Origin: Frankiaceae bacterium
Lineage (GTDB): Bacteria; Actinomycetota; Actinomycetes; JAFAQI01
Reading direction: 5' to 3'
Assembly (NCBI GenBank): GCA_030840525.1
Contig: JAVEEI010000131.1
Coordinates: 526 to 64,525, forward strand
Length of the DNA: 64,000 nt
This document shows, in pieces, positions 3,522-25,664 of the stretch. The notes under the pieces are model-generated. The model was not told the DNA's origin. It saw only the letters and a list, made by a program, of their open reading frames with translations, and made no database searches. The position numbers were made by a program, and so were the translations under genes. Within the stretch, counting starts at the first letter, position 1; each line of letters opens with the position of its first letter.

Positions 3522-4188
3522 CGGCCGCCAGGTCGAGCCGGAAGTGGGCCGCGAGCTCGGCGACGGTCTGAGCGGGGTCGACGTGCCGGATGCCGGTCAT
3601 GCCGACCTGCTCGGCGGCGCGGACGTTCGGGCCGAGATCGTCGACGAACACGCAGTCGGCCGGCGCGACGCCGAGCCGCTCGGCGGTGAGCAGGTAGATC
3701 TCCCGCTCCGGCTTGCGCAGGCCGACCTCCCCGGAGATGACTGTGACGTCGAACAACGCGTCCCAGTCGGTGCGGTCGTAGTCGAGGCCCCACGAGTTGG
3801 ACAGCAGGGCGGTCGGGTGACCCGCGGCGCGGATGCGCCGTACGACGTCAACCATGGCGGGCGCGGCCTGGAAGCCGGCGAACATCCGCCGGAGCATCCC
3901 GTCGGCGGTCAGCGGCCGGCCGTCGACGCTGCGCAGCTCGGCGGCCAGCAGCCGCTCGAACTCCGCTGCGGTGAGCTCGCCGCGCTCGAGCCGGTAGGCC
4001 GGGTTCGCGCCCGGGTCGGTGTCGCGCAGCCAGGTCGTCATCAGCGTGCGGAAGTGCTCGTTGTCGATGCCGTCGCCGTCGCACCAGGCGCGCATCGCCT
4101 CGTCGAGCGGGCTGGTGAGCACGCCGCCGTAGTCGACGACGAGCGCGCTCACGCCCGCCGCGCCGTGTTCCGAGCGGGATTCGGTCAT
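3517..4188 (-). CDS. HAD-like hydrolase family protein
   Basis: VVDYGGVLT motif-I-like segment (second Asp replaced) and a [13 protein letters not shown] motif-IV-like segment. 223 aa with an ATG start. Confidence 0.6.
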
Positions 4189-13610: not shown

Positions 13611-13742
13611 GGTTGGCTCCCTGCTCGTCTAGTCGGTCTCGGCTGCTCGTCGGCTCGGCGTCGCGCACCGCCAAGGCACACATCGTAGGCGTGCTCGGGC
13701 CGGATTGGCCCGGCTGCGCGGGTGGCAGGCCATGATCGGCGA

Positions 13743-15245
13743 ATGTCGACGGCGCACCTCGACCTCGCCTTGCTGGCGGGCGCCGGGGTGCTGCTCGCCG
13801 CGGTCGCGGGGGTCAGGCTGTCGTCGCGGCTCGGCGTGCCCAGCCTGCTGCTGTACCTCGGTCTCGGCATCCTGCTGGGCGAGGACGTCATCGGCGTACG
13901 GTTCGACGACCCCGCGCTCGCCCGCAACATGGGGCTGGTCGCGCTTGCCCTGATCGTTGCCGAGGGCGGCCTCACCACCGAGTGGGCGGTCATCCGGCCG
14001 GTACTGCCGGCGGCCGTCGCGCTGTCGACGGTCGGGGTCGCGGTCAGCGTCGCCGTCATGGCCGCCGTCACCCATCTCGTCCTCGGCCTGCCTTGGCGGG
14101 CGGCCGTCGTGGCCGGCGCGGTCGTCTCGTCCACCGATGCGGCGGCGGTGTTCGCGACCCTGCGGTCGTTGCGGCTGCCGGCGCGGCTCGTCGGCGTCCT
14201 CGAGGCCGAGTCCGGGCTGAACGACGCCCCCGTCGTGATCCTCGCGACCTTGTTGTCGACCGGGCACTCCGGCGCCGGCAATGTCGCGGCGCACGTCGGC
14301 TACGAGCTGGCCGTCGGGGCCGGCATCGGTGTCGCGGCCGGGGTTCTCGGCGCCTCGGGGCTGCGGCGGGCGGCGCTACCGGCGGTCGGGCTATACCCGA
14401 TCGCGACGCTCGGCGTGGCGATCGCGTCGTACGCCGCGGCCGCGAGCGCGGCGGCGAGCGGGTTCCTCGCGGTTTATGTGACCGCGCTCATCCTCGGCAA
14501 CGCCACCCTGCCGCACCGGCGGGCGACGCTCGGGTTCGCGAACGGGGTCGCTTGGTTGGCGCAGATCGGGTTGTTCGTCATGCTCGGGCTGCTGGTCACG
14601 CCGAGCCGGCTCGGGTCGGCGCTGCTGCCGGCGCTCGCGATCGGGGCGGCCCTGCTCGTGGTCGCGCGACCGCTGTCGGTCGCAGCGAGCACTGTCGGGT
14701 TCCGGTTCGGCTGGAGGCCGCAGGTGCTCGTCGCGCTCGCCGGGCTGCGCGGCGCGGCGCCGATCGTGCTCGCGACGATTCCGCTGTCGGCGCACGTGAG
14801 CGGAGCGCGCCGGCTCTTCGACGTCGTGTTCGTGCTCGTCGCGGCGTTGACGTTGCTGCAGTCGCCATTGCTCGCGCCGGCGGCCCGGCGGCTGCGGCTC
14901 GTCGACGACGACGCCGGTCGCGACCTCGACGTCGAGGCAGCGCCGCTGGACCGGATGCTCGCCGACCTCGTGACGGTGACGATCGGCTCCCGGTCGAAGC
15001 TGCACGGCGTCGAGGTCTGGGAGCTGCGCTTGCCGCCGACGGCGGCGGTCGCGTTCGTGGTCCGCGCGGGCGAGGGCTTCGTGCCGGACCGGCGTACGAC
15101 GCTGCGTCATGGCGACGACCTGCTCGTCGTGGTCGCCCGCGCGGAGCGGGCCGCGGTCGAGCAGCGACTGCGTGCGGTGGCGCGCGACGGCCGGCTCGCG
15201 CCGTTGCCTGCCGCTGCCGCCGCACCCCGGCCGCGGCGACGGTGA
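13743..15245 (+). CDS. K+/H+ (cation/proton) antiporter, CPA1/NhaP2 family, with C-terminal TrkA-C-like domain
   Basis: Multi-TM N-terminal domain (GLGILLGEDVIGVRFDDP..., LEAESGLNDAPVVILATLL) and a regulatory C-terminus. A GTG at 13722 is an alternative start. Confidence 0.8.
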   Translation: MSTAHLDLALLAGAGVLLAAVAGVRLSSRLGVPSLLLYLGLGILLGEDVIGVRFDDPALARNMGLVALALIVAEGGLTTEWAVIRPVLPAAVALSTVGVAVSVAVMAAVTHLVLGLPWRAAVVAGAVVSSTDAAAVFATLRSLRLPARLVGVLEAESGLNDAPVVILATLLSTGHSGAGNVAAHVGYELAVGAGIGVAAGVLGASGLRRAALPAVGLYPIATLGVAIASYAAAASAAASGFLAVYVTALILGNATLPHRRATLGFANGVAWLAQIGLFVMLGLLVTPSRLGSALLPALAIGAALLVVARPLSVAASTVGFRFGWRPQVLVALAGLRGAAPIVLATIPLSAHVSGARRLFDVVFVLVAALTLLQSPLLAPAARRLRLVDDDAGRDLDVEAAPLDRMLADLVTVTIGSRSKLHGVEVWELRLPPTAAVAFVVRAGEGFVPDRRTTLRHGDDLLVVVARAERAAVEQRLRAVARDGRLAPLPAAAAAPRPRRR

Positions 15246-15261
15246 CGCCACCGGCAAATGG

Positions 15262-15480
15262 GTGACGTGCGCGACGGGCGCATCGGCACCCGTCGGCGGC
15301 ATCGCACGCGGGTGGACGCGACGCGCGACGGACGCATCGGCAAGTTGGCGGCATCGCGCGCGGGTGGACGCGGCGCGCGACGGACGCATCGGCAAGTTGG
15401 CGGCATGCCACGCGGGTGGCGCGCGCGACACACGCGCCGGCACCGTTGGCGCCATGGGCACGCGGGTGGGGTGCGCGCCG
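15262..15480. repeat. Intergenic tandem repeat, about 52-bp unit, two near-identical copies (15298-15349, 15350-15401) flanked by degenerate partial copies
   Basis: Unit ggcatcgc[a/g]cgcgggtggacgc[g/a][a/g]cgcgcgacggacgcatcggcaagttggc seen directly. It lies between the antiporter stop and the next gene's start. Confidence 0.7.
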
Positions 15481-15602
15481 CGGGCGGCGCAGCGGCCAGT
15501 TACAGGTTCGCCCTACGAGGCGCACCCGCTGTCGCCCGCCGAGGCGCACCCACCCGCGCTTGTGCGACGTGCGCGCCGGCGGCGGTCGCCGGCCCGGGCG
15601 CG

Positions 15603-16403
15603 ATGGAGCGCGGGTGCCGCCGCAGGGGTCGCCGGAATGGCGGGCCGGGCGGGCCGGTTGGCCCCATCGTGACGTCGTCTCGCGGGCCGGTCCGCGTTGT
15701 ACCGACACTCCCCTGGTCGGCAACGTCGCGGTGGCGGCCACGGCCGTCCTCGCTGCCCGTACTGCTTGTCGGCCTATGGATCTTCGGTACCGGCGAGGCG
15801 CTGCTGGTCGCATCCCGGTGGGGGAACACGCCGTGGACGGTGCTGGCCGAAGGGGTCAGCCGGCACAGCCCGCTGTCGATCGGCGGGGCCACGCTCGTGA
15901 TCAGCGCCGTGGTGCTGCTCGGCTGGATTCCGCTGCGCGAGCGACCGGGGCTGGGGACCGTGGCGAACGCCGTGGTCATCGCGGTCGCGATCGACGTCGT
16001 ACTCGACGTGCTGCCGCGCCAGCACCACCCGCTCGGGCAGGCCGGCTTCGTCGTAGCCGGCATCGCCGCGATCGGGATCGGCAGCGCGCTCTACCTCACC
16101 GCCGCGCTCGGGCCGGGGCCGCGCGACGGCTGGATGACCGGCCTGGCCCGCCGGTTCGACCTGCCGCTCGCCTGGGTACGGCTTGGCCTCGAACTCACGG
16201 TTATGGTCGCCGGGCTGGTGCTCGGCGGGCGGGCCGGCGTCGGTACGGCGGCGTTCGCGCTGACCATCGGGTACGCCGTGACCACGACGATGTGGCTGCT
16301 CGACGCAGCGGCAGGGACTCCGGGGCGCCGACGACGGCGACCGGCGGGCGAGGCAGCCAGCGAGACGGCCGGAGCCACCGCGAGCTCGGTAACCGCTCGC
16401 TAG
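15603..16403 (+). CDS. YczE/YitT-like integral membrane protein
   Basis: Four or more hydrophobic helices (LPVLLVGLWIFGTGEALLV; ATLVISAVVLLGWIPL; GIAAIGIGSALYLTAALG). The ATG at 15603 is the first in-frame ATG downstream of the repeat, and the start is uncertain. Confidence 0.5.
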   Translation: MERGCRRRGRRNGGPGGPVGPIVTSSRGPVRVVPTLPWSATSRWRPRPSSLPVLLVGLWIFGTGEALLVASRWGNTPWTVLAEGVSRHSPLSIGGATLVISAVVLLGWIPLRERPGLGTVANAVVIAVAIDVVLDVLPRQHHPLGQAGFVVAGIAAIGIGSALYLTAALGPGPRDGWMTGLARRFDLPLAWVRLGLELTVMVAGLVLGGRAGVGTAAFALTIGYAVTTTMWLLDAAAGTPGRRRRRPAGEAASETAGATASSVTAR

Positions 16404-21922: not shown

Positions 21923-22602
21923 ATGGCGGTCCGGCTTTGTAGCCGACCCCCCGTACGGTCACGACGATCTCGGGGCGCTCGGGGTCGCGTTCGATCTTCG
22001 CCCGCAGCCGCTGCACGTGCACGTTGACGAGCCGGGTGTCGGCCGCGTGCCGGTAGCCCCACACCTGCTCGAGCAGGTGCTCGCGGGTGAACACGTGGCC
22101 GGGCTTGCGGGCGAGTGCCGTCAGCAGGTCGAACTCCAGCGGTGTCAGGCTGATCGCCTTGCCGTCGCGCGACACGACGTGACCCGCGGTGTCGATGACG
22201 AGGTCGGCGATCTCGACGACCTCGTTGGTCGGGACCTCGTTGCGCCGCAGTCGCGCGCGCATCCGCGCGACGAGCTCCTTCGGCTTGAACGGCTTGACGA
22301 TGTAGTCGTCGGCGCCGGACTCGAGGCCGAGGACGACGTCGACCGTGTCGCCGCGCGCGGTGAGCATGACGATCGGCGTACCGCTCTCCGCGCGGATCTG
22401 CCGGCATACGTCGATGCCGTCGGTGCCCGGCAGCATCAGGTCGAGCAGGACGAGATCCGGCTTGGTCGCCCGGAACGCGGCCAGCGCGCGGTCGCCGTCG
22501 GCGACGAACGACGGCTCGAAGCCCTCGGTGCGCAAGACGATGCCCAGCATCTCGGCGAGAGCCGGGTCGTCGTCGACGACGAGCACGCGTCCTTTGGCCA
22601 CG
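21921..22602 (-). CDS. mtrA: Response regulator MtrA (OmpR family)
   Basis: RVLVVDDDPALAEMLGIVLRTEGF receiver domain and a winged-helix C-terminus (VHVQRLRAKIE...VTVRGVGYKA). GTG at 22602. Confidence 0.9.
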
Positions 22603-22675
22603 CATCCATCGTCGCATCCGTCGCGCGTTTCGCGCGGTCGTCTGCCAGGATGGCCCGCGCGAGAGGAGGTACCCG

Positions 22676-23806
22676 GTGACAGGGTGGAGCGCGCCCGAGG
22701 GCGCCGGACCGGTCCCGCCGGCCGCACCCGGCGAGACGGCCCCGAGCCCGCCGTACGTCCCCCCGCCCGGTACGGCGTACGGCGCACCGCCGTACGGCTA
22801 CGGCGCGACGGCGTACGGGTACGGGTACGGCGCGCCGCCGCGGCCGGAGGCACCGCGGCCGGGCATCGTCCCGCTGCGGCCGCTCGGTGTCGGCGAGGTG
22901 CTCGACGGGTCGTTCACGGCCATCCGCACCGCGCCGCTCGCGTCGCTGGGCTACGCGGCGATCGTCATGCTCGTCTACCAGGCGATCTTCCTGCTGCTCA
23001 ACTACACCGTCCTGCGGCCGGCCACGACGACGAACGTCGACGGGTCGACCGTCAGCGACGCGGGCGACGCGGCTGCGCGCGTCGGCGCGGTCTACATCGC
23101 GACGGCCGTCTTCACATCCATCGCGTTGCTCGTGTTGACCGGCGTCATGGCTGCCGTCGTCGGCGAGCGGATCATGGGCCGCCGGGTCACGTGGACGGTC
23201 GCGCGCGACCGGTTGCGTCCGGTCGCGTGGCCGTTGTTGCGCGTCGTCGGCGCGGTGACCTTCATCGTCGCCGGCACGGTCGCCGTCGCGTTGGGTCCCG
23301 GCATCGCGCTCTCGGTCACCGGCTCCAACAGCGGTGGCCCGGCTCTGTTGGCCATCGGCTTCCTGCTGCTCGTGGTGCCGGTGATCTACGCATGGACGAC
23401 GCTGTCGCTCGCGCCCGCGGCGGTCGTTCTCGAACGGCGAGGTGCGCGCGCGGCGCTGCGCCGGTCGCGCAAGCTGGCGCATGGCGGGTGGTGGCGGGTC
23501 TTCTGGATCAGCCTGTTGGCGTGGGTCACCGCGTCGATCGTCGGAACCATACTTTCGTTGCCGTTCCTCATCTTCGGCGGCGGCCTGAGCGACATCTTCG
23601 CCGGCCGGTCGGACAACCTGTCCTTCGTCGTCCTGCTGATGCGAGCGCTCGGCGGGTTCGTCGCCGGGACGCTGGCGCGGCCGTTCCAGGGCGGTGTCTC
23701 GGCGCTGCTCTACATCGACCGCCGGATGCGCGCGGAGGGCCTCGACATGGCGTTGCAAGCCGCCAACGCCGAGGCGTCGACGGCGAACGGCGCGGCCGGC
23801 GCGTGA
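22676..23806 (+). CDS. Conserved polytopic membrane protein (first gene of the MoxR/DUF58 cluster)
   Basis: GTG preceded by gagaggagg. Low-complexity Pro/Gly/Tyr N-terminus (YGAPPYGYGATAYGYGYGAPP), then at least six TM helices. Confidence 0.6.
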   Translation: MTGWSAPEGAGPVPPAAPGETAPSPPYVPPPGTAYGAPPYGYGATAYGYGYGAPPRPEAPRPGIVPLRPLGVGEVLDGSFTAIRTAPLASLGYAAIVMLVYQAIFLLLNYTVLRPATTTNVDGSTVSDAGDAAARVGAVYIATAVFTSIALLVLTGVMAAVVGERIMGRRVTWTVARDRLRPVAWPLLRVVGAVTFIVAGTVAVALGPGIALSVTGSNSGGPALLAIGFLLLVVPVIYAWTTLSLAPAAVVLERRGARAALRRSRKLAHGGWWRVFWISLLAWVTASIVGTILSLPFLIFGGGLSDIFAGRSDNLSFVVLLMRALGGFVAGTLARPFQGGVSALLYIDRRMRAEGLDMALQAANAEASTANGAAGA

Positions 23807-24450
23807 CGGCGTACCCGATCCTCGCCGGCCTCGGCATGGACCCGGTCAACCGCGACGACGCACGCCGCCGCGCGCGCGAGGAGCTGTCGCACGCGGTCTA
23901 CCACCGCTACGACGACTCGTGGCCGGTGCGCGCGGTGAAGGCCGTCGAGCACGCACTCGATAACGCGTTCAACGCGGCCGCCTCGCACTCGCCGGGCGGC
24001 GGCGCCGGCGCGATCGTCTTCCTGGCTTTGCTGGTCGCCCTCGTCGCGTTCGCGCGCTGGCGGCTCGGCCCGACGTCGCGGCGCGCGCACGTGTCGCTCG
24101 ACGTGCTCGCCGACACGACCATGACCGCGGCCGAGCACCGCCGGCGTGCCGACGCAGCGGCCGGCGACGGCGACTGGAAGACGGCCGTCGTCGAGCGGAT
24201 GCGCGCGCTCGCCCGCGGCCTCGAAGAGCGCGCGGTCCTCGACCCGCGGCCGGGCCGCACCGCCGACGAGCTCGCAGCCGAAGGAGGCCGGGTGCTGCCG
24301 GCCGCGCGCGAGTCGCTCGCGACCGCGGCCGCGACGTTCGACGCCGTCGTGTACGGCGACCGGGCGGCGAGCGCCGACGACCACGACGCGGTACGTCGCG
24401 GCGACGAGGCCGCGGCCGCCGCTCGGCCGGTCGAGCTGAGCACCGTATGA
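23803..24450 (+). CDS. DUF4129-like protein
   Basis: GTGA overlap with the upstream gene. Position and size match the DUF4129 partner in conserved MoxR clusters. One TM helix. Confidence 0.5.
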   Translation: MTAYPILAGLGMDPVNRDDARRRAREELSHAVYHRYDDSWPVRAVKAVEHALDNAFNAAASHSPGGGAGAIVFLALLVALVAFARWRLGPTSRRAHVSLDVLADTTMTAAEHRRRADAAAGDGDWKTAVVERMRALARGLEERAVLDPRPGRTADELAAEGGRVLPAARESLATAAATFDAVVYGDRAASADDHDAVRRGDEAAAAARPVELSTV

Positions 24451-25664
24451 GCCCAGGTATGAGCACAGCTATGAGCACAGCCGTCGCCGAGTCCCCGGCG
24501 GAGACCCGACCAGCGGGTCCGCCGTACGACGAACCGCCCGCCCCGGACTTCGCCGGGTGGCTGCGCCGGGCGTGGCGGCCGGTGCTGCTCGTCGCTCTCG
24601 TCGTCGCGACCGCGGTCGGGCTGGCGGTCGTCGGGTCGGCGCCGGTCGCGCGGCCGCTCGACCCCACCGACGCGTCGCCCGACGGCGCGCGCGCAATCGT
24701 CGCGTTGCTGCGCCAGCAAGGTGTCGAGGTACAGACGGCCGACAGCGTCGACGCGCTCACCTCGTCGGGTGACGCGACCGTCGTCGTCTCGGTACCCGAC
24801 GTCCTCGGGCCGAGCCAGCTCGCCAGCCTGTCCGCGACCGACAGCGACCTCGTCCTCATCGCGCCCGGCGACGACGCGCTGTCGATGCTCGGCCTTCCGG
24901 TGCACGAGGCCGGCGACGTCGCCGCGGACAAGGTCGGGCCGCACTGCGACCTGCCGGCGGCGACGTCGGCCGGCACGATCACCGTCGACGGGCCGGTCTA
25001 CACGGCGAGCGGCGACGTCGCGCAGAGCTGCTACCCGGTCGCGGGCGAGCACGCCGTCGTCGTCACGAAAGGGCCGGCCGGCAACAAGGTCACCGTCGTC
25101 GGGTCGCGGGCGGTGTTCGCCAACCGCACCCTCGGCGACGACGGCAACGCGGCGCTCGCCCTCGGCCTGCTCTCCGACCACCCGCGCCTCGCCTGGCTGA
25201 TCCCCGTCGCGCCGACGGAGGCGACCGACACCCAGCGGCACGGCCTGTTCGAGCTGCTGCCGGGCCGGCTCGGATGGGCGTTGCTCGAGGTCGGCGTCGC
25301 GTTGCTGCTGTTCGCGGTGAGCCGGGCCCGCCGGCTCGGACCGCTCGTCGCCGAGCCGCTGCCCGTCGTCGTACGTGCCACCGAGACGGTCGAGGGCCGC
25401 GCCCGGCTGCTTCGCGGCGCGCGGGCCCGCGGGTCCGGCGCCGACGCGCTGCGCGCCGCGGCCCGGCGCCGGCTCGGGACGAGGCTCGGGCTCGGCGCCG
25501 CGCCCGACCGGGCCGCGCTCGTCGACCGCGTCGTCGCGCGCACCGGCCGCGGCGCCGACGACGTGTCCGATTTGCTGTACGGTTCCTCCCCGGCAGACGA
25601 CCGCGGCCTGGTCGCGCTCGCGACCGCACTGGACCGGCTCGAAGAGGAGATGCGCCGACAGTGA
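24447..25664 (+). CDS. DUF4350-like protein
   Basis: ATGA overlap. N-terminal TM helix, a periplasmic-type domain and a second TM helix near the C-terminus. Conserved position upstream of MoxR. Confidence 0.55.
   Translation: MSPGMSTAMSTAVAESPAETRPAGPPYDEPPAPDFAGWLRRAWRPVLLVALVVATAVGLAVVGSAPVARPLDPTDASPDGARAIVALLRQQGVEVQTADSVDALTSSGDATVVVSVPDVLGPSQLASLSATDSDLVLIAPGDDALSMLGLPVHEAGDVAADKVGPHCDLPAATSAGTITVDGPVYTASGDVAQSCYPVAGEHAVVVTKGPAGNKVTVVGSRAVFANRTLGDDGNAALALGLLSDHPRLAWLIPVAPTEATDTQRHGLFELLPGRLGWALLEVGVALLLFAVSRARRLGPLVAEPLPVVVRATETVEGRARLLRGARARGSGADALRAAARRRLGTRLGLGAAPDRAALVDRVVARTGRGADDVSDLLYGSSPADDRGLVALATALDRLEEEMRRQ

Follow-up and report, generated by a model that had tools for sequence, protein, structure and literature searches.

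Bacterial minisatellites, the VNTR class, are tandem arrays of units of about 10–100 bp that arise by slippage or unequal exchange. A second kind of actinobacterial repeat, the MIRU-like elements, has to our knowledge so far been described in mycobacteria. The MIRU unit measures 40–100 bp, and about 40–50 MIRU loci are present in a Mycobacterium tuberculosis genome (PMC3184786). MIRUs sit between the genes of polycistronic operons, the ends of their ORFs overlap the neighbouring genes, and their insertion is believed to take place at start codons, with a −4 spacing (PMC3184786, PMC12548453).

We analysed a 52-bp tandem repeat in the spacer between an antiporter gene and yczE, within a 64-kb stretch of DNA (hereafter the window) from a metagenome-assembled genome (MAG) of the Frankiaceae. 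With head-to-tail units of 48–52 nt in a non-coding spacer, graded divergence among the units and a near-identical central pair, the array resembles a bacterial minisatellite or VNTR; the resemblance extends to copy number and unit length, which differ in a sister lineage (L001), and to absence of the array from other relatives, in what is a comparison between lineages. With MIRUs as described by Supply et al. 1997 (via PMC3184786, PMC12548453), the array shares an actinobacterial host, a tandem unit of 40–100 bp, a position at a probable operon junction and contact with the upstream stop codon, and here too open frames with 4-nt GTGA overlaps reach the next gene. Unlike MIRUs, the array comes without evidence of dispersal, its unit appears to derive from local sequence and not from an insertion, its open frames are compositional, and its host is a Frankiaceae MAG, not a Mycobacterium; the MIRU likeness is one of description, judged by size, arrangement and position. 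Iterons and operator arrays offer a third comparison, in that direct repeats upstream of a gene are spaced here by a whole number of helical turns, but the repeats are not conserved at the orthologous junctions, no core motif is shared with other sites, and neither a promoter consensus nor a cognate protein was identified. Taking these comparisons together with the evidence below, we consider it likely that the array is a non-coding minisatellite, most probably neutral, which arose by a recent local tandem duplication confined to this lineage, at a junction prone to rearrangement. The feature is real but ordinary.

Tandem Repeats Finder (TRF) placed the repeat at 15269–15469, with a period of 52, 3.9 copies, 83% matches and a score of 236, which is the top score of the window, the runner-up being a 39-nt array at 40675–40830 with a score of 235. 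In a scan for self-similarity, the lag-52 signal was highest from 15286, where 78 of 100 positions matched; the background across all lags and positions was 30.7 ± 5.8, and the single signal stronger than this one came from a coding repeat at 40.7 kb. A profile of the unit matched on five consecutive units. The locus thus shows head-to-tail units within the range of about 10–100 bp and a similarity above chance, in a window whose base composition is about 75% G+C, and ‘minisatellite’, the term used in the original prediction, is an apt description of what TRF, the lag scan and the profile matches detect.

In the register adopted here, five units on the plus strand, u0 to u4, span 15243–15498 and occupy about 250 of the 357 bp first taken as the gap. 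The array had been predicted to hold about 3.5 copies; it is real, but four to five is the better count, and it starts on the antiporter stop codon (TGA, 15243–15245), which is the first triplet of u0. The central units u1 (15295–15346, 52 nt; nhmmer E=1e-09) and u2 (15347–15398, 52 nt) are 96% identical, with 2/52 differences; in the register of the original prediction the pair differs at 3/52 positions (94%), just as had been stated. From this centre similarity falls outward, to 65–77% for the flanking units. Unit u3 (15399–15446; nhmmer E=2e-08), which carries a 4-nt deletion and is 48 nt long, is 73–75% identical to u1 and u2, and u4 (15447–15498, 52 nt; nhmmer E=1e-04), a degenerate distal copy, is 75–77% identical to them. 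At the other end, u0 (15243–15294), which would be a degenerate founder copy, is 73% identical to u1, compared with a 99th percentile of 71% for random 52-mers from the window, and it is recovered by a profile of u1–u4 alone (15254–15289, E=0.007). Degenerate copies on both sides of the central pair had been described, and the identities to u1 of u3 (75%), u4 (77%) and u0 bear this out. The same does not hold for the 18-mer sub-motif GACGGACGCATCGGCAAG, which had been assigned to each unit: it occurs exactly in two units only, with a third match at 3 mismatches.

Downstream of the array lie a second small direct repeat, formed by two 20-nt copies of TCGCCCnnCGAGGCGCACCC (15508–15527 and 15532–15551, plus strand; 24-nt spacing, 90% identity), and the proximal spacer before the conserved yczE start (15564–15636, plus strand), which is outside the array and homologous to the spacer of L001. 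That the repeats fill most of a 357-bp gap is correct as to coverage, but the gap end at 15602 is doubtful, the non-coding gap probably ending at 15636 or 15668.

Both neighbours of the array had been named correctly, as a K+/H+ antiporter and a YczE-like protein, judging by their Pfam domains and homologues. The cation/proton antiporter gene (13722–15245, plus strand) matches PF00999 Na_H_Exchanger (7e-40) and PF02080 TrkA_C (3e-06). Downstream, the gene for a YczE/DUF6198-type membrane protein (15669–16403, plus strand) has 3423 homologues, most of them with PF19700 and named ‘uncharacterized membrane protein YczE’ by JGI. Its start is uncertain, the candidates being GTG 15669, ATG 15603 and GTG 15840, the last of them the NCBI choice. 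By alignment and translation, ATG 15637 corresponds to a conserved start: it aligns with the yczE start of four other lineages (invariant CGGAATGGC), and YczE homologues, 205–267 aa in length, start near this conserved ATG. In the present genome, a 1-nt deletion after CGGTTGGCC throws ATG 15637 out of frame, so that some other yczE start must serve. The displaced ATG now reads an 11-codon ORF, MAGRAGRLAPS (15637–15672, plus strand), whose stop codon, TGA 15670–15672, overlaps the in-frame GTG 15669. The deletion may be a genuine frameshift, which would yield a coupled mini-ORF, or else an error in the MAG consensus. The NCBI protein P0004 (MAG: Frankiaceae bacterium, QOD07_1819) equals the last 187 residues of the window YczE, with Met for GTG, and the GTG 15840 start on which it is based removes the conserved YczE N-terminus.

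We compared the orthologous locus in 11 other lineages (20 related loci), which gives 12 lineages with the window. The best non-self match of YczE is 91% identical, and the comparisons are thus between lineages, not strains. Gene order is constant throughout, namely secA(−), antiporter(+), yczE(+), LuxR-type response regulator(−), hpf(−), Pribosyltran(−), lpqB(−) and HisKA/HATPase histidine kinase(−), with the antiporter–yczE junction as the sole exception. In an outgroup clade (L141, L140, L002, L015 and L007), a minus-strand Na_Ca_ex gene encoding 350–360 aa separates the antiporter gene from yczE. It is found at 2855–3910 of L002, 2834–3898 of L007 and 1827–2909 of L141, and also, in part, in L015 and L140; in this clade it overlaps the 3′ end of the antiporter gene by 29 bp. 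Neighbour-joining trees built from YczE together with the response regulator (424 columns), and from YczE by itself (189 columns), point to, and are consistent with, a single loss of Na_Ca_ex in the clade that holds the window. A decayed exchanger gene within the gap was also considered and rejected, since tblastn searches of the window with the exchanger proteins from L002 and L007 gave no match there.

Within the clade that lacks Na_Ca_ex, the spacer measures 6 bp in L012–14, 19 bp in L003, 59 bp in L138, about 145 bp or less in L016, 169 bp in L001, 181 bp in L011 and 357 bp or more in the window. The unit profile found no match in the 20 related loci of the 11 other lineages, apart from a weak one at the orthologous site of L001 (E=0.018). 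In L011, the next closest lineage, the 181-bp spacer (563–743) is of unrelated sequence and repetitive by eye (GGGGAC / CTCCGGCGCG); a repeat search reported no family there.

The sister lineage L001 is 92.7% identical to the window at the nucleotide level in the antiporter gene, 91.9% in yczE and 97.6% in the response regulator gene, and despite flanking genes that are 92–98% identical, the two gaps differ by 222 nt. Two segments are common to both spacers, namely the 28 nt that directly follow the stop codon (25/28 identical) and the last ~70 nt before the conserved start; in between, the window carries 222 additional nucleotides. Around the first, positions 15201–15273 of the window align to L001 3787–3859 at 85%; for the second, blastn aligned 15564–15700 with L001 3926–4065 (79%, E=2e-24). 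L001 has a two-unit duplication of its own at the orthologous junction, with a 46-bp spacing and units of 46–52 nt, and each copy opens with the same exact 22 nt, GCGGCGCTGACGCCACCGGCGC (3822–3843 and 3868–3889), which takes in the last 7 nt of the antiporter gene and its stop codon.

Comparison of the units across the two genomes bears on their origin. Units u1–u4 of the window are 67–96% identical to one another and the two L001 units, a and b, 79%, while u1–u4 are 62–69% identical to the L001 units; u0 is 75% identical to L001 unit a. The units therefore group by genome and not across genomes, the pattern expected if a shared founder had been amplified separately in each lineage. The first 31 nt of u0 are common to L001, alone among the relatives, and as u0 passes without a break into unique flanking sequence that L001 also has, the unit would derive from local sequence. 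An origin from a conserved 3′ coding segment of the antiporter gene (73% over 33 nt) was not supported by the unit profile and remains a hint. By sequence divergence, the u1/u2 duplication (2/52 differences) is much younger than the split from L001, whose flanking genes have diverged by ~7–8%, and u2 would be the youngest duplicate in the array, copied from u1. The expectation that the array varies between strains holds among relatives and in a loose sense, with four to five units of 52 nt in the window, two of 46–52 nt in L001 and none elsewhere.

For a local duplication, a simple history can be proposed. The antiporter gene and yczE would first have lost an ancestral Na/Ca-exchanger gene that lay between them, and this would have left the two nearly abutting, as they are in several relatives (6–19 bp), and presumably co-transcribed and translationally coupled. 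Next, the shared ancestor of the window and L001 would have gained a short spacer right behind the antiporter stop codon. Head-to-tail amplification of this spacer would have followed in each of the two lineages on its own, through replication slippage or unequal recombination. The outcome would be five units of 48–52 nt here and two units of 46–52 nt, including the stop codon, in L001, with the u1/u2 duplication as the latest step in the window lineage. Most likely, the array does not act through its sequence, and the one effect that is probable would be structural: with a spacer of ~390–420 nt and 79% G+C, the ancestral coupling of yczE expression to the antiporter may be weakened or lost. 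The data show the repeat itself, its non-coding nature, its absence from the orthologous junctions and a separate expansion in L001, whereas slippage, neutrality and the effect on coupling are inferred. The original prediction had itself named the finding that would reduce the array to an inconsequential local duplication, namely that it be unrepeated or absent in relatives and without other copies, and this is essentially what the data show. At most, the array may prove useful for typing strains of an uncultured soil actinobacterium, and it offers a small example of a tight two-gene junction that would have passed through gene loss, near-abutment and minisatellite expansion among close lineages.

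Of the other explanations, the one that survives best would make the array part of a MIRU-like family, dispersed and possibly mobile, of 40–100-bp intergenic elements at operon stop/start junctions, the units of which would carry short ORFs with 4-nt overlaps to their neighbours and so keep downstream translational coupling. We regard this as unlikely. The unit length of 52 bp falls within the MIRU range (PMC3184786), the array begins on a stop codon, and it lies between co-oriented genes that are spaced 6–19 bp apart in the relatives L012 and L003 and were presumably co-transcribed. The tetranucleotide GTGA at 15242–15245, 15262–15265 and 15669–15672 accounts for all three plus-strand stop trinucleotides in 15240–15672 and forms a chain of 4-nt stop/start overlaps, in frames 0→2→1→0, from the antiporter gene through the array to yczE, which resembles the −4 coupling described for MIRUs (PMC12548453); through it, coupling could be preserved rather than broken. 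We give this chain little weight, since stop codons are rare by composition, the chance that all three TGAs are preceded by G is ~0.08 by our own estimate, and its last link requires the 1-nt deletion, which may be an assembly error. The open frames, too, are roughly as composition predicts, with one plus-strand stop trinucleotide observed against 2.4 expected from dinucleotide shuffles (p=0.27), and 52 is not a multiple of 3. Moreover, u0 grades into unique sequence shared with L001, with no hint of an inserted element with ends of its own, and the units are more similar within a genome than between genomes.

Dispersal itself found no support in the sequences searched. The 64-kb window has no further site that matches GACGGACGCATCGGCAAG at 3 or fewer mismatches, and the unit profile, applied to the window and up to 141 loci (0.98 Mb), matched only the array and the weak L001 site. 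A strict 24-base pattern gave no match in viral contigs and one in the JGI metagenomes, inside a coding region without a tandem repeat and hence a chance match; a looser 18-base pattern in genome contigs yielded, among the matches listed, single chance matches in unrelated phyla. A literature search on tandem repeats or VNTRs in Frankia returned no papers. At the density of ~40–50 loci per M. tuberculosis genome (PMC3184786), a stretch of 64 kb should contain less than one further copy on average, which makes the dispersal searches weak and the lack of a second copy in the window weak evidence against such a family. The MIRU-type family of the original prediction thus appears unsupported rather than refuted or excluded. 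The array would gain in interest only if copies of its unit turned up at further operon junctions, MIRU-like elements being known from mycobacteria so far. The more specific form of this idea, in which the array would represent a MIRU-like family found at several loci in uncultured Frankiaceae/Mycobacteriales, seeded on operon stop/start junctions and tolerated through chained GTGA overlaps, we judge very improbable; the notion of junction seeding draws on the L001 duplicate, which includes the stop codon, and on a 12-nt repeat at 24437–24481 that is seated on an ATGA junction.

A second alternative, that the units are an operator or iteron-like array of binding sites controlling yczE, for instance for the adjacent LuxR-type response regulator, and phased every five helical turns, appears quite unlikely. 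Direct repeats do lie ahead of the gene, and a response-regulator gene is always beside yczE; the 52-bp period corresponds to about 5 × 10.4 bp, which would set the sites on one face of the DNA, an arrangement compatible with protein binding but not evidence for it. Tandem operator sites were part of the original prediction, yet all 12 lineages have both the response regulator and yczE, and the motif is confined to the window, the L001 version being weak and partial. The unit is absent before the orthologous yczE genes, and in several relatives just 6–19 bp separate the two genes, the gaps of 6, 19 and 59 bp being too small to hold it. The unit shows no dyad symmetry beyond that of GC-rich, low-complexity sequence, and there is no promoter consensus nearby on which such sites could act: simple consensus scans, which are ill-suited to actinobacterial promoters, found neither a sigma-70-type promoter nor an intrinsic terminator.

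It is very unlikely that the copies or their number, together with the 1-nt deletion, are products of short-read metagenome assembly. The window does come from a metagenome-assembled genome, and assembly readily collapses or expands tandem repeats; against this, the units are distinguishable, which permits unambiguous assembly, except for u1 and u2 with their two differences, and the independent assembly of L001 has a related duplication at the orthologous site.

Translation of the array, whether it were to lengthen the N-terminus of YczE from ATG 15258 or to act as a switch governed by reading frame, in which the gain or loss of one 52-nt unit shifts the frame by 1 nt and turns yczE on or off, is extremely unlikely. 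An ORF at 15258–16403 does run uninterrupted through the whole array in frame with the body of yczE, the conserved ATG 15637 is out of frame, which requires a different start, and 52 mod 3 = 1. The last property also means that the translation of 15258–15602 samples all three frames of the unit. The resulting Arg-rich product has no homologue at E≤0.01 among 5.8 billion proteins and no Pfam match, and the known YczE homologues, as noted, are shorter and start near the conserved ATG; in-frame starts nearer to the conserved part are available at ATG 15603 and GTG 15669. In the antiporter gene, G+C content is 0.93–1.00 at third and ~0.47 at second codon positions, with strong periodicity to ~15130 that weakens in the variable C-terminal tail, and third-position G+C is 0.93–1.00 in both flanking genes; in contrast, this periodicity is absent from ~15200 to 15700, where all positions are flat at 0.72–0.88, and resumes at ~15780. 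An open frame through the array is expected from base composition. A conserved ORF across the region, which the original prediction had allowed for, is rejected on the codon-position profile, the search for homologues and the stop-codon counts given above: the frame is open, yet it has neither periodicity nor homologues.

A structured RNA in the antiporter–yczE transcript (a leader, riboswitch, attenuator or small RNA), for which the original prediction had suggested folding the transcript, is likewise extremely unlikely and already disfavoured, for although the region is long, G+C-rich, untranslated and upstream of a gene, and contains a local hairpin with a 10-nt perfect stem (15551–15560 paired with 15607–15616), none of 4227 Rfam families matched it even at E≤10, the terminator scan was empty, and the minimum free energy of the plus strand was no lower than that of dinucleotide shuffles, with positive z-scores for the whole gap (+0.82), single units (+0.05 to +1.45), the unit pair (+1.61) and the proximal 141 nt (+0.37), while the spacer sequence is unconserved in relatives, which leaves no room for covariation.

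Two further tandem repeats were observed in the window. The one at 24437–24481 consists of 3.8 copies of the 12-nt unit TATGAGCACAGC, at and just past the ATGA stop/start overlap between genes for DUF4129 (22345–24450) and DUF4350 (24447–25664) proteins; it keeps the reading frame, extends the DUF4350 N-terminus by MSTA repeats, and represents a second junction-seated tandem duplication in the window. The 39-nt array at 40675–40830, on the minus strand, is a coding repeat of 4.1 copies, which encodes the Lys/Ala/Pro-rich, PAKKAAA-type C-terminal tail of a long coiled-coil-like ORF.
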